DNA of 64,000 nucleotides, from assembly GCA_039933785.1 (NCBI GenBank), contig JBDTNL010000014.1:1382-65381 (forward strand). The letters are read 5' to 3'. Shown piece after piece: positions 23,121-34,941 of this stretch (within the stretch, counting starts at the first letter, position 1; each line of letters begins with the position of its first letter). Under the pieces are notes generated by a model that was not told the DNA's origin, searched no databases, and saw only the letters and a list, made by a program, of their open reading frames with translations. This DNA is from Acidobacteriota bacterium (lineage in GTDB: Bacteria > Acidobacteriota > Thermoanaerobaculia > Multivoradales > JAGPDF01). The translations under genes were made by a program, and so were the position numbers.

Positions 23121-24596
23121 TCAGTGCCCGACGCGCGCGAAGTCGACGAAGCCACGCTCGACGTCGGTGCTGATCAGCTTCACCGAAACGCGATCGCCGA
23201 CATCGAGCCCCTGCCAACCCTGTTCGAGGCGCCCTTCGACCGGCGGCCGCACCAGCCGAACCCAAGTGCCCTTCTCGGAAGCGCCGGTGACGAAGCCGTC
23301 GAAACGTTGCCCGACGCGATCCTCGAGCAGCAGCGCGGCCGCGGACTTGCGTACCTGACGCTCGATCTTGGCGGCGTCGTCCTCCTGCTCGGTGCAGTGC
23401 GCTGCCAAGGACTGCAGATCGCCCACGCTGTACGGCGATGGTGCCTTCATGAGCACCGACTTCAGCAACCGCTGCGTGATCACATCGGGATACCGGCGGT
23501 TGGGCGCCGTCGAGTGGGTGTAGTCCTTGACCGCCAGGCCGAAGTGCCCGGTGGGCGAGCCGCCGGGCAGGTCGACGGCGTACTCGCCGGAGCCCATCAG
23601 CTTCACGATGGTGAGCGACAGATCGGGGAAGCGCTGCGGATCGACTTGCTTGCGGCGGAGCAGGAATGCCTCGAGCGCGCCGGCATCGGGTTCGGCGGGC
23701 AGCGCCTCGCTTAGGGTATGGGCGACTTCGACGATGCGTGCCCACCGTTCGGGCGAGCGGAGAACGCGGCGCAGCGATGGCAAGCCGTGCTGGTCGAGGA
23801 AGCGTGCGCTGACGCCGTTCGCCGCGATCATCAAGTCTTCGATCAGCTGGCGGCCGCGATTCTTCTCCTGCAACTGGAGGTCCTCGATCCGATCGCCGGT
23901 GAACACCGCGTGCGCCTCGATGGTTTCGAGGTCGAGCGCGCCTTGACGATGCCGCACGCCGCGGAGTTTCTGCGCCGCCTCATCCTGCCAGCGCAGATTT
24001 TCTTCCAGGCCCGGCACCGCGGCGAGCGGCGCCGGCGCCGGACCCTTGCCGTCGAGCCACACGGAGACGCTGTCGTACGCGAGCTTGGCCTGGTTGCGCA
24101 CCGTGGCGCGATAGACGTCGGAGCCATTGAGCTCCCCGTCGGAAGTGACCACGGCTTGGATGACCACCGCCAGGCGATCGGCGTCCTGGATCAGCGAGGT
24201 GAGATCGGTCGACAGGCGTTCCGGCAGCATGGGATAGATGCGTGCCGCGGTGTAGACCGAGGTGGTGTTCACCGCCGCGTGGCGATCGATCGCCGAGCCC
24301 TTGGAGACCAGGGCGTCGACGTCGGCGATCGCGATCAGCAGCCTGGTGTCTCCATTCGGCAGGCGCTCGGCCACTGACAGCTGGTCGAGGTCGCGCGAGT
24401 CGTCGTTGTCGATCGAGCACCAGAGCATCCCGCGCAGGTCCTTCACCTCGGCTCCCTCAGCGTGGGCTGCTCTGGTGATGGACTGCAGCTGGGCGGTGAC
24501 GTCGGCGGGAAACTCGGGCTCGAGACCCTTGTCGCGCATGACGCGGTCGGAGATTCGGATCAGGTCGGCACGATCATGGCGCTGGCGAGGTGACAT
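23121..24596 (-). CDS. RNase II/RNase R family 3'-5' exoribonuclease (RNB domain + C-terminal S1)
   Basis: RNB-domain length and motifs, C-terminal S1-like KGTWVRLV...GDRVSVKLISTD; start placed at ATG 24596 (TTG 24680 alternative). Confidence 0.8.
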   Translation of the reverse strand: MSPRQRHDRADLIRISDRVMRDKGLEPEFPADVTAQLQSITRAAHAEGAEVKDLRGMLWCSIDNDDSRDLDQLSVAERLPNGDTRLLIAIADVDALVSKGSAIDRHAAVNTTSVYTAARIYPMLPERLSTDLTSLIQDADRLAVVIQAVVTSDGELNGSDVYRATVRNQAKLAYDSVSVWLDGKGPAPAPLAAVPGLEENLRWQDEAAQKLRGVRHRQGALDLETIEAHAVFTGDRIEDLQLQEKNRGRQLIEDLMIAANGVSARFLDQHGLPSLRRVLRSPERWARIVEVAHTLSEALPAEPDAGALEAFLLRRKQVDPQRFPDLSLTIVKLMGSGEYAVDLPGGSPTGHFGLAVKDYTHSTAPNRRYPDVITQRLLKSVLMKAPSPYSVGDLQSLAAHCTEQEDDAAKIERQVRKSAAALLLEDRVGQRFDGFVTGASEKGTWVRLVRPPVEGRLEQGWQGLDVGDRVSVKLISTDVERGFVDFARVGH

Positions 24597-24676
24597 GGAG
24601 CGGAATGATACAGCCAGCTGGGATCGTGCAGGGAAGGGCGACACCGATCGAACAGGCGGCGCCCCTCCCTTATGGT

Positions 24677-25117
24677 TCAACGCGCGAACGCGTACTTCAG
24701 GTCCCGCATGCGGTCGTGACTGGCACGAACGCGCGGCAGATAGCGGGCGACCGAGGCACGAAGCTCGGCGGAATCGTCGTGGACAGCCTCTTCGCAGGCG
24801 CGAAGAAGCTGGTCTTCGGCTTCCTCCAGCTGAGATATCAACATCGGGTCGAGGTCCAAGGTAAATTTCGCCCGGACCTCGGTATAGGCCTTGCGCAGAC
24901 CCCCCTTGAGCGTGCTGTCGAGCGCGGGAGGGTCGACCAGCGTGGCGACATGAACCGAGAGATCGTTGATCAGCTCGGCCTTGGCGCTGGTTAGCGCGCG
25001 AAACACATCGCGCAACCCCGGGGCGGTGTGTTGCAGAGCCGCCCAGCTGTAGAAGTCGCGCCCATCACGAGCGAGAGGCAGGAGCTCGTTCAGGGCTTCG
25101 CTGGTCTTGTCGCGCAT
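24677..25117 (-). CDS. PA2169/DUF2383 family four-helix-bundle protein
   Basis: 146 aa, helical, DFYSWAA motif typical of PA2169 family; third gene of small-protein operon. Confidence 0.6.
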   Translation of the reverse strand: MRDKTSEALNELLPLARDGRDFYSWAALQHTAPGLRDVFRALTSAKAELINDLSVHVATLVDPPALDSTLKGGLRKAYTEVRAKFTLDLDPMLISQLEEAEDQLLRACEEAVHDDSAELRASVARYLPRVRASHDRMRDLKYAFAR

Positions 25118-25129
25118 TGCGGGCCTCCG

Positions 25130-25279
25130 CTAAAGGACTCGCCGCCCCTGGATCAGCTGGACCAAGACCATGATCACGGCGACGATGAGAAGAATGTGAA
25201 TGAAGCCGCCCATGGTGTACGACGACACCATGCCGAGCAGCCAGAGAACGATGAGGATGACAGCAATAGTCCATAGCAT
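25130..25279 (-). CDS. lmo0937-family small membrane protein (49 aa), below ORF-track threshold
   Basis: Minus-strand ATG 25279 with RBS AGGAGA 9 nt upstream; MLWTIAVILIVLWLLGMVSSYTMGGFIHILLIVAVIMVLVQLIQGRRVL matches lmo0937 family closely. Confidence 0.7.
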   Translation of the reverse strand: MLWTIAVILIVLWLLGMVSSYTMGGFIHILLIVAVIMVLVQLIQGRRVL

Positions 25280-25291
25280 TGTCGTTATCTC

Positions 25292-25732
25292 CTAGGCGCC
25301 GACCTGAGCGTGAACTTCGATAACCTTGTTGCCACTGTCGTCCGTGTTTTGGATCAACTTGACCTTGGAACCGATCGCCACTCCGGCATCGATGGTGGCT
25401 CGCACCTTGGCGTCGTCGAGGTCGAAGCTGTGCTTGTCATTGTCGCCGGTCATCACTTCGATCTTCTTGCCGGCGGTGTATTCGGTGACCGTTCCGAGCA
25501 CCGTCTGCGACTTGCTGTCGACGCTGCCATCGGGAGTCTTGATGGTGGTTGACGTCGTCGAGTTCACCGTGTCGCCGACCTTCTCGGTCGCGGACTGGGT
25601 GACCTTGGTGCCTTCCGGCGTTTCGGTCTTGGTCTTGGTTTCGCTCTTGATGGTGTCAGGGGCGGTGTTGTTACACGCGGCTCCGGTCCCCAACATGGCA
25701 ACCAACAGAATCGAACAACTTATGGATCGCAT
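25292..25732 (-). CDS. Hypothetical lipoprotein (146 aa), Thr/Ser/Lys-rich, lower GC
   Basis: Lipobox LLVAMLGTGAAC; RBS GGGAGG; first gene downstream of a sigma-54 promoter. Confidence 0.6.
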   Translation of the reverse strand: MRSISCSILLVAMLGTGAACNNTAPDTIKSETKTKTETPEGTKVTQSATEKVGDTVNSTTSTTIKTPDGSVDSKSQTVLGTVTEYTAGKKIEVMTGDNDKHSFDLDDAKVRATIDAGVAIGSKVKLIQNTDDSGNKVIEVHAQVGA

Positions 25733-25783
25733 CGCGGCCTCCCGGGACTCGGGTAGTTTGTGTGTGTCCCTGGGGAGTCATAG

Positions 25784-25799
25784 AGCAGCATTCGTGCCA
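25784..25799 (-). promoter_or_regulatory. Candidate sigma-54 (-24/-12) promoter for lipoprotein/lmo0937/PA2169 operon
   Basis: Minus-strand TGGCACgaatgCTGCT (GG-N10-GC), ~50 nt upstream of ATG 25732. Confidence 0.5.
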
Positions 25800-25893
25800 G
25801 AGGGCGGGTGGCCAAACCACGCTTTGAGGAGGCCTGGAGGGGGGCGGGCGGCCCCGCGCCGGATCGTTCGTTGCTCTTTTGTAGAAAGGACGC

Positions 25894-28617
25894 TCAGCGC
25901 CGTTCGCGGAAGCGCACGGCTTCCTCTTCGGTCACCGGGAGGCCCTGCCGGTTGATGATCCGCATATAGATCGCGTACGCGTGCTTGCGGTCGAGCGTTG
26001 TCCAGGGGAGCTCGATGTCGTAGCGGTACTTGGCGACCATGAAGGGCGAATCCTTCACCGCCACTGGAGCGGGCAAGTCGAGCATGCGGGTCTGCATGAA
26101 TACGTCGGAGCGCAGGAGCGAACGCCGCAGTTCGGCGCGCAGCATCAGATTCTCGTCGAAGCGGTAGTCGCTATAGAGCTCGAGCCGCACGCGGCCGCTC
26201 GCTGCCTCGCGATACATGCGCCCGGCGCGCAGGCGCGCGTCGGAGGAATCGATCCAATCGGCGTCGGGCACCTTCCCCATCGAATCGCTCTTGCCGACGC
26301 CCGTATCGGAGACGCCTCTGGAACCGGTCGCCAGAGGCGTGTGTTGAAAGGGTCCCGAACTGGTGCCCGGCGGTGCCGCGAGGGCCATGCCCGGCGTGGT
26401 CGTTGCCACCGTTGCGCCCACCGCGGACCCCGTGTTCGTCAGCCGCAGCGGCCGGAACATCGAATCGGTGAAGATCTCGGCCGCGTAGCCGACGTGGCTT
26501 GCGCCCCCCGCCACGCGCACCAGGAGGAGCTCCAGGAAAGCCACGTCGTCGGGGTCGGAATAGAGTTCCGACCAGCACTCGATGCAGCCCCGCCCGGTCT
26601 TGCCCGTGCTTCGCAGGTGATCCCAGTGGCGGACGAAGCCCTCGGCTTTGCGGAAGAGGTCCGCCGCCGAGGTGCGGCCATCGAACCCGATGCCGCGAGC
26701 TGCCGCCGGGTGGTTGCCGAACCAGGCGTCCAGTCGGCGTGCGATCGGCGGGTCCGTCGGCGGGCGATTGCGGCCGTTCGGGCGCCGCGCCGTCCACCCT
26801 GATCGCGACGCCGCGTTGGCCCAGGTGTCCTGGAGTGCGGGACCGAGGTAGAACTCGGCCAGCGCCCGCCAAAGGTAGCGGTCGTCCAGATCCTGCGCCT
26901 TCTCGATTTGTGCTCTGCCGGCGTCGATGTCGAGCGACAGGCTGACACCTTCACGATGACTCGCATCCTGGGGTCGCAGATCGGCGACCTCTGGGGTGTG
27001 GACCTCGGAGCCCAGGATGCCGCGCAGCAGGGCGGCCAGGCGCCCGATCTTCGCCGAGTCGGCCTCATGGTCGTGGATCTCGAGTCGGACCGAGAGCGTC
27101 TCCGGCGGCGCCTGCTTGTCGACGGGAGCGTCCAACGGCTGCGGATCGGAGCGCAGGGTGAGGATCGACCGCCGGCTTCGTTGCCGGTGATGCCACCAGT
27201 TCTGGTGCAGGTTCTGATAGCCGGCGCTGGTGGTCTCTACGTAGCGCTCGCTCGGCGTCTGGATCTCCTGCAGGACGCTCACCTTGTTGCGATCGGCCCG
27301 GAACCAGGACGGGAAGCGGGCCAAGAACGAATGCTCCCGCCGCTTGCCGTCGCGATAGCTCGAATTCAGGATCTCGACTCCGGCGCGTTGTTCGGCGGCC
27401 TGGAGGAGCGGCTTGAACTGCACGCGATGGCCGGTGCCGAGGAGCTGGGTGAACGCGGCCGCGGCGACCGGGTTCTTGAGATCGATGCGATAGACGATCT
27501 CCGAGGCTCGAAAGCCAGAGTTGTCGAACCGGTCGTTGAGCAGCGTGTAGCCGTAGTTCAAAAACAGGAGCTTCACTTCTGGGCGGATCTTGAGCGGCGT
27601 GGTCTCGAGCCCGCGCGCCGCGACGTTCTTCACTCGCACCAGAACGATGTCGTCGGCGCGCTTGACGATGGTGGTTTCGCGCAGGAAGCGCAGGAAGCCC
27701 TTGAAGTTCACTCTCGCGCCCCAGCGATCCATGCCCAGCGACACCGGCGCCACCTCGACGAAAGCCAGGTAGCTCACCGCGTCGCCACTCTGGAGCTCGG
27801 TGTTCGAGGCGTTGAACAAATCGGCGCGGATCGGAACTCCGAGATCCGCCCACACGGTGATCGGCTCGGCGAACCCCTCGAAGAAGACCGCCCCCTGCTC
27901 GGTGTCCTCGAAGTGGCGGCCGATCTGGCCCGCCAGCAGGCCGATGAAATCCGCCAGCCCGCGCCCGGCGTCATGCAGGATCTGACGGTTGAAATGCACG
28001 CCGTGTGTGGTCCAGTACTGCTGCATCTCCTCGGACGCTGTTCCGACGTGCAACCTCCGCGAGCTGCCCTCGGCGAGCGCATGCAAAGGCTCGGTGCTCG
28101 CCACGGTGATGACGAACCCGGCCTCGGTGGCGAGGCCGATGCGGAAGGGGTCCAAGCGGTCGCCCAGGTAGTCCACCTTCAGCCGGCCCTTGCCGAGCGC
28201 GGAGTTGATGCTCTGGAAGTACGAAAAGTCGTTCGTGCCGACCACGCCCCCGGGCTCGATCTCCTTGTGCCGCTCGACGACCCGGCGCTTGAAATTTGCC
28301 AGCAGCGTGAGATCCACTTTGTCGAAGGCGTGCCCGAGCTCGAACTGCAGATCGCCGAGATCCTGAAAGAGCTCGCCGTTGCGGGATTCCTTGAAGATTT
28401 CGTCGGAGAGCAGGTCCGTCGCCTCCGGCGAACGCGAGCCGTCGAAGCTGCCGAGCGCTTTCCATTCCGGGTTGCCGGCGAGGTCCGGCATCTCGCGAAT
28501 CTCGGACGCGGACTCCTGAGCGACCGCCGAGCTGGCCCAGGAGAGGCCGGCGAGCAAGGCGGCAGCACACGACAGGCGCCGACACCCGGCCAGCCGAGAT
28601 TCCGGAAAAAGCATCAT
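25894..28617 (-). CDS. Large secreted hypothetical protein (907 aa)
   Basis: Signal peptide; RBS GGGAGGG 10 nt upstream of ATG 28617; no recognisable catalytic motif. Confidence 0.75.
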   Translation of the reverse strand: MMLFPESRLAGCRRLSCAAALLAGLSWASSAVAQESASEIREMPDLAGNPEWKALGSFDGSRSPEATDLLSDEIFKESRNGELFQDLGDLQFELGHAFDKVDLTLLANFKRRVVERHKEIEPGGVVGTNDFSYFQSINSALGKGRLKVDYLGDRLDPFRIGLATEAGFVITVASTEPLHALAEGSSRRLHVGTASEEMQQYWTTHGVHFNRQILHDAGRGLADFIGLLAGQIGRHFEDTEQGAVFFEGFAEPITVWADLGVPIRADLFNASNTELQSGDAVSYLAFVEVAPVSLGMDRWGARVNFKGFLRFLRETTIVKRADDIVLVRVKNVAARGLETTPLKIRPEVKLLFLNYGYTLLNDRFDNSGFRASEIVYRIDLKNPVAAAAFTQLLGTGHRVQFKPLLQAAEQRAGVEILNSSYRDGKRREHSFLARFPSWFRADRNKVSVLQEIQTPSERYVETTSAGYQNLHQNWWHHRQRSRRSILTLRSDPQPLDAPVDKQAPPETLSVRLEIHDHEADSAKIGRLAALLRGILGSEVHTPEVADLRPQDASHREGVSLSLDIDAGRAQIEKAQDLDDRYLWRALAEFYLGPALQDTWANAASRSGWTARRPNGRNRPPTDPPIARRLDAWFGNHPAAARGIGFDGRTSAADLFRKAEGFVRHWDHLRSTGKTGRGCIECWSELYSDPDDVAFLELLLVRVAGGASHVGYAAEIFTDSMFRPLRLTNTGSAVGATVATTTPGMALAAPPGTSSGPFQHTPLATGSRGVSDTGVGKSDSMGKVPDADWIDSSDARLRAGRMYREAASGRVRLELYSDYRFDENLMLRAELRRSLLRSDVFMQTRMLDLPAPVAVKDSPFMVAKYRYDIELPWTTLDRKHAYAIYMRIINRQGLPVTEEEAVRFRERR

Positions 28618-28674: not shown

Positions 28675-28690
28675 AGCAGGATTGGTGCCA
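28675..28690 (-). promoter_or_regulatory. Candidate sigma-54 promoter for the 907-aa secreted protein gene
   Basis: Minus-strand TGGCACcaatcCTGCT (GG-N10-GC) ~58 nt upstream of ATG 28617. Confidence 0.5.
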
Positions 28691-28753
28691 GCGGCTGGAA
28701 AAGGGATCCCGGCGGCACTGCTCTTGCAGAGCCCCGCACAGACCGGGGGTGAT

Positions 28754-32322: not shown

Positions 32323-34725
32323 TTGCCATCATCCGAGCCCGATCTCTCATCCAGTCCCACCGCCCGCAAGCTCGGCTTGACCAGTACGAGATTCTTCGTC
32401 CCCGAGGTCAGATCTCCGGCGCTGCGGGTGTTGGTTGCTGTTGGGTTGGCGGCGATGATTCCCTTGGCCTACTCGCGGAGCGCTGAGTGGGCGGGGACGG
32501 GCTCCTATTTCGTGCTCGCGTTTCTGGCGGTGATCGCCTCGGCTTGGCTCGGTCGGCTGGCGTCGGGTTTGATCACGCTGGTCGCCTGTGCCCTGCTGAG
32601 CATCTATTTCTTCCCGGCGCCGAACCCCGAATGGACGGTGGACGCTCACAGGGCCCGCCTCACTCTGCTCTTCCTGATTGGCGGGGGACTGATCTGCCTG
32701 GTTATTGAAGCCCTGCATTTCGGTCACTCGGTCACCTCGCGCCTGCGCGCCGAGAGCGAGGCCCTGGCTCGGCAGCTGGCGGCGGAGCGCGAGCGCCTGC
32801 ATGCGTTTCTCGCCAACCTGCCCGGCGTCGTTTGGGAGGCCGCGCTGGCGCCGGGCCACGCGCGCCCCTTGATGTCGTTCATGTCGCCGAACGTCGAGAG
32901 CCGGCTGGGCTGGAAGCCCGAGGCGCTGAACCTGGCCGACTCGGCCTGGCGGGCGGTCCTGCATCCTGAAGACGAGCAGACGCTGTGGAGCGCCCTCCAG
33001 GCGGCCCAGCCGGGATCGGTGGGGCGCGTCCGCGGGCGGTGGGTGGATCCCCAGGGTGGTGTGCGCTGGTTCGATACCTATTTCTCGAGCGGCTCCGGTC
33101 CCGAGGGAGCGAACCATCGCCTGCGCTGCCTTTCGGTCGACGTCACCGACGCCGAACGCGCCGAGCGCGCGGTGGAGAACAGCGAGTTACGTTTCCGCGC
33201 CACCGCCGAACGGGCGCCGATGATGATGTGGCGCGCCGACCCGGAGGGCAACACCACTTGGGCCAACCGCGCCTGGCTCGAGTTTCGCGGCCGGGCGATG
33301 GACTTCGAGTCCGGTCTCGGCTGGCTGCGCGACGTTCACGCCGACGACCTCGACTCGGTGGCGCGAGCGCTCACCCGCTCGGCGGGCTCCAAGGACGAAG
33401 TCCGGTTGGAGTACCGGGTGCGTAAACACGATGGGACCTTCCCTTGGGTGTTCTCGCTGCGCCTGCCGCAGGCCGACAGCGAGGGCGCGCTCGATGGCTA
33501 CCTGGGTTTCGCGATCGACATCAGCGAGCGCAAGGAGCTCGAGCTGCAGCGCGAGCGCATGCTGAAGGAGACCCAGCGGGCTCGGCTCGAAGCCGAGATC
33601 GCGACCCGTAGCAAGGACGACTTCCTGGCCAAGGTGTCGCATGAGTTGCGCAACCCGCTGAACGGGATCCTGGGCTGGGCGCAACTGCTGCGCCGCGACG
33701 ACATCGAACCCGAGGAGATGACCCGCGGCTTGGCGATGCTCGAATCGGGCGCGCGCGCTCTCTCGCAACTGGTGGACGACCTGCTCGACGTCTCCCGCAT
33801 CATCGCGGGCAAGATGGACCTGGCGCTCGAGCAAACCGATCTGCGCTCCGTGCTCGAGGCCGCCATGGCCACGGTAACGCCGGCGGCCGAGGCCAAAGGC
33901 GTCGAGCTCGAGGCCGCGGCGCCGGAGGATCTGCCGGTGGTGATGGGCGATCCCCGGCGATTGCGCCAAGTGGCCTGGAATCTACTCGCGAATGGCGTGA
34001 AGTTCACCCCGCGAGGTGGGCGCGTCCGCTGGGCGATCGAGCGGGAGGGTTCGCTGTTGGCCCTCCGAGTGACCGACACCGGCATCGGGATCGCACCCGA
34101 GTTCCTGCCCGAGGTGTTCTCGCCGTTCCGCCAGGGTGAGTCGACGACGACCAGGCGCTACCAGGGGCTCGGCCTCGGCCTGGCTATCGTGCGTCAACTG
34201 GTGGAGCTCCACGGCGGGACCGTGGACGCGCAGAGCGCGGGCCTGGAGCAGGGCTCCACCTTCACTGTCCGCCTCCCCGTGGCGAGCATGACTGCCGCCT
34301 CCGCCCCAGTAGTGGAAGCGCCCGAGGAAGACGACGCGGCCGCGTTGTCGGGCGTCGCGGTGCTGGTGGTCGACGACGACCCGACCGCTCGCGAGCTCCT
34401 GCACGTCTTGCTGTCGCGGGTGGGCGCGCAGTGTCGCGAAGCCGCTTCGCCAAGCGAGGCCCGCGCGCTGCTCGAAGATCGGCTCCCGAACGTCATCGTG
34501 AGCGACATCGAGATGCCCAACGAGGACGGCTATTCCTTCCTCCGCAGCCTGCGCGCTCTCGAGCCTCGGCGTGGAGGGAGCATTCCGGCGATCGCCTTGA
34601 CCGCATTCGCGCAGGCCGAGGACCGCAAGCGAACGGCGCTGGCGGGCTTTCAAGCTCATCTGGCGAAACCGGTCGACGTCGAGTTGCTGGTCAGCACGAT
34701 CGCGCAGATGGCACGCACCCCGTAG
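32323..34725 (+). CDS. Hybrid sensor histidine kinase (TM N-terminus, PAS domains, HisKA, HATPase_c, C-terminal REC)
   Basis: H-box VSHELRNPLN, G-boxes, C-terminal receiver VLVVDDDP...D; TTG start with RBS. Confidence 0.85.
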   Translation: MPSSEPDLSSSPTARKLGLTSTRFFVPEVRSPALRVLVAVGLAAMIPLAYSRSAEWAGTGSYFVLAFLAVIASAWLGRLASGLITLVACALLSIYFFPAPNPEWTVDAHRARLTLLFLIGGGLICLVIEALHFGHSVTSRLRAESEALARQLAAERERLHAFLANLPGVVWEAALAPGHARPLMSFMSPNVESRLGWKPEALNLADSAWRAVLHPEDEQTLWSALQAAQPGSVGRVRGRWVDPQGGVRWFDTYFSSGSGPEGANHRLRCLSVDVTDAERAERAVENSELRFRATAERAPMMMWRADPEGNTTWANRAWLEFRGRAMDFESGLGWLRDVHADDLDSVARALTRSAGSKDEVRLEYRVRKHDGTFPWVFSLRLPQADSEGALDGYLGFAIDISERKELELQRERMLKETQRARLEAEIATRSKDDFLAKVSHELRNPLNGILGWAQLLRRDDIEPEEMTRGLAMLESGARALSQLVDDLLDVSRIIAGKMDLALEQTDLRSVLEAAMATVTPAAEAKGVELEAAAPEDLPVVMGDPRRLRQVAWNLLANGVKFTPRGGRVRWAIEREGSLLALRVTDTGIGIAPEFLPEVFSPFRQGESTTTRRYQGLGLGLAIVRQLVELHGGTVDAQSAGLEQGSTFTVRLPVASMTAASAPVVEAPEEDDAAALSGVAVLVVDDDPTARELLHVLLSRVGAQCREAASPSEARALLEDRLPNVIVSDIEMPNEDGYSFLRSLRALEPRRGGSIPAIALTAFAQAEDRKRTALAGFQAHLAKPVDVELLVSTIAQMARTP

Positions 34726-34754: not shown

Positions 34755-34770
34755 TGGCACGAAAACTGCT
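34755..34770 (+). promoter_or_regulatory. Candidate sigma-54 promoter 30 nt after the kinase stop
   Basis: TGGCACgaaaaCTGCT (GG-N10-GC). Confidence 0.45.
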
Positions 34771-34857
34771 AAATCAAGGACTGTAGCCGCGCGCAGTGCC
34801 TCGCGGCCTCTTCCCCAACGAGGCCGGCCGCTGTTTGGCTGGCTGCTCGCCCCCGCG

Positions 34858-34902
34858 GAGCCGGAGAGAGCCGACTCTCTCCGGCTCCGTCCCTCCATTT
34901 TT
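34858..34902 (+). terminator. Perfect 13-bp stem-loop followed (after 10 nt) by T5; possible terminator or protein-binding element
   Basis: GAGCCGGAGAGAG-ccga-CTCTCTCCGGCTC then cgtccctccaTTTTTgg. Confidence 0.4.
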
Positions 34903-34912
34903 GGTGTCGCAG

Positions 34913-34941
34913 TTGACAGACTCAAACAGTCGTTTGATACT
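34913..34941 (+). promoter_or_regulatory. Sigma-70-like promoter of tetR/efflux operon with embedded 16-bp palindrome (candidate TetR operator)
   Basis: TTGACA(34913-18)-17 nt-GATACT; palindrome TCAAACagtcGTTTGA at 34922-34937 within the spacer. Confidence 0.45.

Follow-up and report, generated by a model that had tools for sequence, protein, structure and literature searches.

The 64-kb stretch of contig JBDTNL010000014.1, from a metagenome-assembled Acidobacteriota genome, analyzed here (hereafter the window, to which all coordinates refer unless another locus is named) contains three minus-strand open reading frames (ORFs) arranged head to tail at 25732–25292, 25279–25130, and 25117–24677. 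They encode a predicted lipoprotein, a 49-aa membrane protein of the lmo0937 family, and a four-helix-bundle protein of the PA2169 family, respectively, and they are preceded by a putative sigma-54 (−24/−12) promoter. The ORFs are separated by gaps of 12 nt, and each has its own ribosome-binding site (GGGAGG at 25743–25738 for the lipoprotein gene, AGGAGA for the 49-aa gene, and GGAGG for the last gene); the three genes are therefore probably co-transcribed.

The promoter element, TGGCACGAATGCTGCT, lies on the minus strand at 25799–25784, where the strand reads cTGGCACGAATGCTGCTcta in the context ...ccctc TGGCACGAATGCTGCT ctatg..., with the GG doublet at 25798–25797, the GC doublet at 25786–25785, and a GG-to-GC spacing of 10 nt. 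It differs from TGGCAC-N5-TTGCW by one mismatch (C replacing the first T of TTGC) and has the doublet spacing that defines membership of this promoter class. The element is intergenic, co-oriented with the operon, and 51 nt from the ATG of the lipoprotein gene (25732). A preliminary description of the locus had reported a sigma-54 element at these coordinates approximately 50 nt before three small genes, and both its position and its description were correct.

Scanning of the whole window with the strict pattern TGGCACN5YTGCW revealed three matches versus 0.14 expected (approximately 20-fold), and this count was not attained in any of 100 dinucleotide-preserving shuffles. All three strict sites (25799–25784, 28690–28675, and 34755–34770) read CTGCT at the −12 element and lie between genes, each facing a downstream feature. 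The relaxed pattern with two mismatches was no commoner than chance (26 matches versus 21 expected), so weight can be given to strict sites only. A sigma-70-like promoter scan of 24300–26100 found none, and the same interval contained no −35/−10-type site for a group-2/3 stress sigma factor, that is, no promoter of the general-stress-regulon (sigmaB/RpoS) type. The operon resembles a general stress regulon in its gene content, not in its promoter class.

To place the element in an evolutionary context, loci encoding homologues of the lipoprotein were gathered from assemblies, JGI metagenomes, and GTDB genomes, the named ones being Thermoanaerobaculia or Acidobacteriota metagenome-assembled genomes (MAGs). 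TGGCAY-N5-NTGCT was present upstream of the lipoprotein start in 21 of the 21 distinct loci with sufficient upstream DNA (the window and L001, L002, L004, L005, L006, L007, L008, L009, L010, L012, L015, L016, L018, L019, L021, L025, L026, L027, L036, and L037). The motif lay 20–220 nt from the start codon, mostly 20–60 nt, and the lipoproteins of these loci ranged from 100% down to approximately 37% identity to that of the window. TGGCA and TGCT never varied, while the five spacer bases and both flanks did. Three loci without the motif were uninformative: L017 and L020 end too near the gene, and in L014 the lipoprotein gene lies behind another gene. When both strands of the 394 kb of collected DNA were searched, the pattern gave 27 matches, 21 of which were the lipoprotein promoters. 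The upstream neighbors differed among loci and included the 907-aa gene found in the window, a divergent AI-2E transporter gene, a 466-aa gene, a CHAD gene, and a divergently oriented gene (L012 and L016). This pattern strongly supports the prediction that the −24/−12 element is a sigma-54 promoter conserved in every relative examined, and TGGCAY-N5-NTGCT provides a usable sigma-54 consensus for the clade.

The promoter-proximal gene (25732–25292, minus strand) encodes a protein of 146 aa with the N-terminus MRSISCSILLVAMLGTGAAC, whose signal peptide ends in ...GTGAAC. Cys20 was invariant in 23 of 23 homologues, as in a lipobox, and the −3 residue is Gly, not Leu, which makes this a relaxed-type lipobox; the product is thus a predicted lipoprotein. 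In each of the 22 homologues, the signal peptide ended in this Cys, and each also had a stretch rich in Thr/Ser and the conserved C-terminal domain. The ORF had no Pfam or NCBIfam match, and its NCBI entry (ABI609_06110) reads only hypothetical protein. The family is narrow, comprising 23 protein clusters, occurring in 4 of 185,579 GTDB species representatives, and restricted to a few Thermoanaerobaculia/Acidobacteriota lineages. An AlphaFold2 model built from the homologue alignment predicted an all-beta protein (predicted local distance difference test score 86, and above 95 over residues 30–140) consisting of four long strands and, after them, a small domain of five strands, and a Foldseek search of this model against PDB gave no significant match (best E 0.35).

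In profile hidden Markov model searches, the second ORF (25279–25130, minus strand; 49 aa with two hydrophobic segments) scored 68.8 bits against NF033488 (lmo0937_fam_TM; cut-off 30) and 61.6 bits against PF18919 (DUF5670; cut-off 23.5), the score extending over the full-length 43-residue model. At least 7988 homologues were found, many of them 80–90% identical across phyla, and the lmo0937/DUF5670 family appears in a published list of often-annotated membrane proteins no longer than 50 aa (PMC11796252). The preliminary description had presented this gene as unannotated; it is already deposited in GenBank as MEO8503453.1, "lmo0937 family membrane protein", and was missing only from the ORF track on which that description was based. 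The last ORF (25117–24677, minus strand; 146 aa) scored 90.6 bits against TIGR02284 (PA2169 family; cut-off 44.8) and 61 bits against PF09537 (DUF2383), and is deposited as MEO8503452.1, "PA2169 family four-helix-bundle protein". Both family names had been proposed beforehand, and both scores exceed the curated cut-offs. The DUF2383 protein aligned end to end with PDB entry 4ETR (E 0.0016), with E..ED and HDR opposite the Glu/Asp/His metal triad proposed for PA2169 (PMC3539698). A word-index search with this protein returned only two homologues.

Comparison of the loci showed that the genes behind the lipoprotein gene change from one to another. None follow in L002 and L009; DUF5670 follows in L004; an OsmY/DolP-like BON lipoprotein and then DUF5670 follow in L005, L037, and L039; DUF3309, another 50-aa membrane protein, follows in L006, L016, L017, and L019; and DUF2188 follows on the contig of P0014. 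The window and L001, a relative with 90% identity, have the combination of DUF5670 and DUF2383. Because the downstream genes are exchanged in this way, the conserved sigma-54 target is the lipoprotein gene, and the genes of the lmo0937 and PA2169 families ride along in a cassette of small envelope/stress-type proteins whose makeup varies. DUF2383, found in the operon in the window and L001 only, is a recent add-on in the window lineage. It had been suggested that stress genes are here wired to sigma-54. The promoter is indeed conserved before the operon, but it is conserved with the lipoprotein gene and not with the lmo0937/PA2169 genes; the locus is not a rewiring of those genes as such but a lipoprotein operon, specific to the clade, that gained small genes of the stress type. 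The interpretation offered in the preliminary description was thus partly supported.

DUF5670 genes outside this clade were examined in two other lineages. In an unrelated 67%-GC lineage (L028–L031), where they sit among Gly-zipper, CsbD, and cardiolipin-synthase genes, neither the strict nor a looser pattern revealed a sigma-54 motif, and no EcfG-type GGAAC-N16-CGTT promoter was found in L028. The strict pattern also had no match in a 48%-GC lineage (L032–L035), and a general wiring of DUF5670 genes to sigma-54 was rejected on the basis of the absence of the strict pattern from both sets of loci. The looser pattern matched one site in L032–L035, TGGCAACCCATTTGCA, which heads a gene cluster (1241–1256 in L032; approximately 425–445 in L033–L035). 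In L033–L035, this site precedes a ten-gene same-strand run of small-protein genes including BON and DUF5670, and L032 carries a variant cluster behind the same site; the cluster content comprises ABM, glutaredoxin, THIVI_2564, OsmY-like BON, DUF5670, DUF4398, OmpA, and DUF3309. These four loci are closely related to one another, and TGGCAACCCATTTGCA sits very close to the first start codon. Treated as a lead only, the site may mean that a DUF5670 cluster came under sigma-54 control independently here, a hint that such wiring has more than one origin.

The usual sigma-54 geometry would place the transcription start approximately 12 nt past the GC doublet, near 25773, giving a predicted 5' leader at 25773–25733 (minus strand) that contains the ribosome-binding site of the lipoprotein gene and is conserved between the window and L001. 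At the other end of the operon, a terminator-like GC-rich hairpin (11+4 bp; centroid −28.5 kcal/mol) lies on the minus strand at 24670–24630, 7 nt past the stop codon of the DUF2383 gene. A long GC-rich hairpin occupies the equivalent gap before an RNase II-like gene in L001, L002, L004, L005, and L036. The stem sequences of these hairpins differ and the pairing is kept; most have no U-tract and one is followed by UUUUU, and their z scores ranged from −3.8 to −6.3 in four of the five relatives, with −0.43 in L001. Since pairing-conserved hairpins lie at the equivalent gap in relatives, the end of the operon was placed at 24670–24630, and the RNase II-like gene downstream (approximately 24596–23121; RNB and S1 domains) was treated as a separate, syntenic unit.

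Upstream of the promoter, a TTCTACAAA box at 25886–25878 (minus strand), 87 nt upstream of the T of TGGCAC and directly behind the stop codon of the upstream gene, is a candidate enhancer (upstream activating sequence) or architectural-protein site. Its position, approximately −110 from the predicted start, would suit an enhancer. The box is kept between the window and L001, and the DNA between box and promoter has diverged. In the form TTCTRCAAA (at most one mismatch, either orientation), it occurred 81–92 nt upstream of TGGCAC in seven of eight non-redundant clade-A loci, versus a mean of 0.08 loci in shuffles; it is inverted in one real locus and was not enriched across the window. A reading of the box as a divergent sigma-54 −12 element on the opposite strand was examined by eye and rejected: L002 lacks a GG at a distance of 10 nt ahead of the GC, and the window has TTGTA where the −12 element would need TTGCA. 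In L010/L011, L015, and L018 of the more distant clade, where the TTCTRCAAA box is absent, the 60–120 nt directly upstream of the sigma-54 element are made up of short tandem repeats, with the repeat units CTGTCGA (four copies, L015), a CTTGCTC-type unit (L018), and TCATCCTCCTYGTCATCCCGAG (three copies, L010).

The window contains a single sigma-54 activator gene (32260–30863), which encodes an NtrC/AtoC-type response regulator with REC, AAA+, and HTH_8 domains; its sigma-54-interaction domain (PF00158) scored 238 bits and carries the loop GSFTGA. The presence of this gene suggests that the organism uses sigma-54. A hybrid PAS histidine kinase is encoded divergently from it at 32323–34725, and the pair lies approximately 5 kb from the operon. 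Relative L040 shows 83% nucleotide identity to the window over 9.7 kb, with synteny ending at the AI-2E gene (window approximately 29846 onward). L040 has no activator/kinase pair at this site, and its promoters for the lipoprotein gene and the 907-aa gene are still kept.

We consider it highly probable that the three genes truly form an operon under RpoN (sigma-54) control, in an uncultured soil acidobacterium of the Thermoanaerobaculia type. Under this reading, sigma-54 RNA polymerase would bind the −24/−12 element at 25799–25784 and wait there as a closed complex until an AAA+ enhancer-binding protein, probably bound to the TTCTACAAA box or close to it, some 110 nt upstream, opened the complex using ATP. 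Transcription from near 25773 would then yield one mRNA for the exported lipoprotein, the 49-aa two-helix membrane protein, and the cytoplasmic PA2169-type four-helix bundle, ending at the GC-rich hairpin. The lipoprotein would be the ancient conserved target of the promoter, and the small genes (DUF5670, DUF3309, OsmY/DolP-like BON, and DUF2383) an exchangeable cassette of the envelope/osmotic-stress type that different lineages placed under the same promoter. The operon is likely to serve a signal-induced cell-envelope response.

Several observations weigh against this account. No rpoN gene or RpoN box is encoded in the 64-kb window. No activator gene occurs within ±8 kb of the lipoprotein gene in four MAG loci (L024–L027), and none linked to the operon was found in these loci or in L040. 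A search for an upstream motif common to the three strict window sites (k-mers of 9–11 with one or two mismatches) gave counts no higher than shuffles; an exact 13-mer common to two of the upstream regions, GCGAACGGCGCTG, is coding sequence in both, probably a chance match, and was discarded. The TTCTRCAAA box is not a dyad, its definition was post hoc, and the more distant clades lack it. The window hairpin at 24670–24630 has no U-tract and is statistically unexceptional (z −1.06 in its 96-nt context). Some read-through from the 907-aa gene, which also has a sigma-54 site, is possible, as no convincing hairpin was found in the window between the stop of that gene (25894) and the promoter (z +0.9).

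The last of these points leads to one competing explanation, in which the sigma-54 site is real but most expression of the operon originates elsewhere, either at the promoter of the 907-aa gene with read-through or at an unrecognised extracytoplasmic function (ECF) or housekeeping promoter, sigma-54 acting as a conditional boost or a roadblock. Acidobacterial housekeeping and ECF promoters are poorly defined, and a sigma-70 scan could miss them. However, the element keeps the same distance from the lipoprotein start whatever the upstream gene, a perfect GC palindrome follows the upstream gene in L001, and read-through is impossible where the upstream gene is divergent, so we regard this explanation as improbable. 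Less probable still is the idea that the motif matches by chance or is conserved as a site of another kind, such as a repressor operator or an RNA element. In its favor, the evidence is of sequence alone and the two-mismatch pattern stands at chance level in the window. Against it, the strict pattern is some 20-fold above expectation, and all 21 loci keep TGGCA, TGC, and the 10-nt GG–GC spacing with a free spacer, a signature of −24/−12 elements and not of a dyad operator or a helix. As the 21-locus pattern is that expected of sigma-54 recognition, a chance match or another type of site is very unlikely, and this already disfavored explanation can be given hardly any weight.

A different question is which activator would serve the promoter. 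The local activator (32260–30863) and kinase (32323–34725) could be the cognate regulators of all three strict sites (25799–25784, 28690–28675, and 34755–34770), making up a compact local regulon. The three CTGCT sites do fall within a 9-kb region surrounding the window's single activator gene, the third of them 30 nt past the kinase stop codon, and the activator has REC, AAA+, and HTH_8 domains. The sharing of CTGCT, to which the preliminary description had drawn attention, is correct; it is weak evidence of common control, because the first base of NTGCT is C, G, A, or T among orthologous lipoprotein promoters and the promoter of the 907-aa gene in L040 reads CTGCA. The case for the local pair is weakened by the synteny break in L040, which keeps both promoters without the pair, and by the lack of an activator near the operon in L024–L027. 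In addition, the three promoters share no upstream motif above shuffles, and the activator scored below every NCBIfam equivalog cut-off, matching no specific equivalog. Assignment of the operon to the local pair is therefore unlikely.

Comparison with characterized systems revealed similarities of organization. The E. coli pspABCDE/PspF and zraP/ZraSR systems resemble the arrangement predicted for the window operon in combining a −24/−12 promoter, an AAA+ activator that fires it, and a short operon whose small membrane or periplasmic products are believed to protect the envelope, and PspF and ZraR are among the listed activator classes (PMC3162934). In contrast to these systems, the window operon encodes no PspA, PspC, or ZraP homologue by Pfam and NCBIfam search, has no adjacent PspF or ZraSR, and is anchored by a clade-specific lipoprotein without a relative of solved structure; the likeness is one of analogy and not of membership.

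The stress regulation of the namesake genes, which the preliminary description had pointed out, agrees with published data. In Listeria monocytogenes, lmo0937, after which NF033488 is named, was 54-fold sigmaB-dependent by RNA-seq (PMC2813243) and lower in a sigB mutant (PMC7690807), and it has also been reported as PrfA-regulated (PMC3225968). The window gene belongs to the same small, stress-linked protein family, but there the gene is controlled by sigmaB and here it is the second gene behind a putative sigma-54 promoter. In Pseudomonas aeruginosa, a block of lipoprotein transport by LolCDE inhibition induced PA2169 14–24 fold, with osmC, osmE, and PA2167/PA2171 also induced (PMC7685553), which links PA2169 to envelope stress. 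PA2169 (4ETR) and the DUF2383 protein of the window belong to the same family, share the four-helix bundle, and have the triad aligned, with a pairwise similarity of only about E 1e-3. To our knowledge, PA2169 is not under a known sigma-54 promoter in Pseudomonas. The OsmY and DolP (YraP) genes of E. coli are RpoS- or sigmaE-controlled. A similar BON lipoprotein is encoded in the same predicted sigma-54 operon of L005, L037, and L039, the window operon having no BON gene, and by analogy its presence in these relatives points to an osmotic/outer-membrane stress role of the cassette.

Sigma-54 has been described as a "controller of the bacterial exterior", lipoproteins and membrane stress included (Francke et al. 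2011, PMC3162934). The window operon is like the cases described there in that predicted sigma-54 sites are conserved before lipoprotein and envelope genes across phyla, and other sites at this locus also face envelope genes (those of the secreted 907-aa protein and the AI-2E transporter in the window and of an outer-membrane beta-barrel in L040). A term search of that work did not find the word Acidobacteria, and the lipoprotein family is not described there. Our observations leave knowledge of sigma-54 itself unchanged, its control of lipoproteins and membrane-stress operons being already established. Regulation in Acidobacteriota is almost unstudied and the phylum has few cultured members; the promoter offers a concrete, testable sigma-54 target. 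The operon structure also ties three families of uncharacterized function (DUF5670/lmo0937, DUF2383/PA2169, and DUF3309) and OsmY-like BON proteins to one putatively inducible envelope module, which is a clue to their function. More broadly, sigma-54 and an activator might in Thermoanaerobaculia fill the role of sigmaB, RpoS, or EcfG, switching on a modular cassette of small envelope/osmotic-stress proteins anchored by a clade-specific lipoprotein; this is a tentative idea that we rate as unlikely.

The genes upstream of the operon showed further sigma-54-type sites. The product of the 907-aa protein gene (25894–28617, minus strand) begins with a signal peptide and matched nothing in Pfam or NCBIfam; the gene has a sigma-54-type promoter of its own. 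This promoter forms part of a back-to-back pair at 28675–28728, with TGGCACCAATCCTGCT on the minus strand before the 907-aa gene and CGGCACTGCTCTTGCA on the plus strand facing the AI-2E gene. Both sites are kept in L040 (7023–7080), TGGCACCAATCCTGCT with a changed spacer and CGGCACTGCTCTTGCA identical. Only the window/L001 lineage has the 907-aa gene inserted at this place, with the lipoprotein operon on one side and the AI-2E gene on the other; in L007 and L008, the AI-2E and lipoprotein genes are immediate, divergently oriented neighbors. The activator, kinase, and TetR-efflux genes lie beyond the AI-2E gene in the window. The corresponding part of L040 (1–5900) carries an outer-membrane beta-barrel gene behind a sigma-54-type site, TGGCACGCTTTCTGCT, followed by the gas-vesicle genes GvpA/F/G/K/L.

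The third strict site, TGGCACGAAAACTGCT (34755–34770, plus strand), lies 30 nt past the stop codon of the hybrid kinase gene and approximately 250 nt before the TetR gene, which has its own sigma-70-like promoter (TTGACA-17-GATACT, 34913–34941). An Rfam search of the whole window gave no match at the gathering threshold and only noise near this site. The stretch between TGGCACGAAAACTGCT and the TetR promoter (within 34755–34912) is predicted to fold very strongly, with a minimum free energy of −70.3 kcal/mol and a z score of −4.58; at its end, a perfect hairpin of 16 bp precedes ...CCAUUUUUGG. By analogy with crcZ, glmY, and qrr, the third site could drive a sigma-54-dependent small RNA beside the two-component system.

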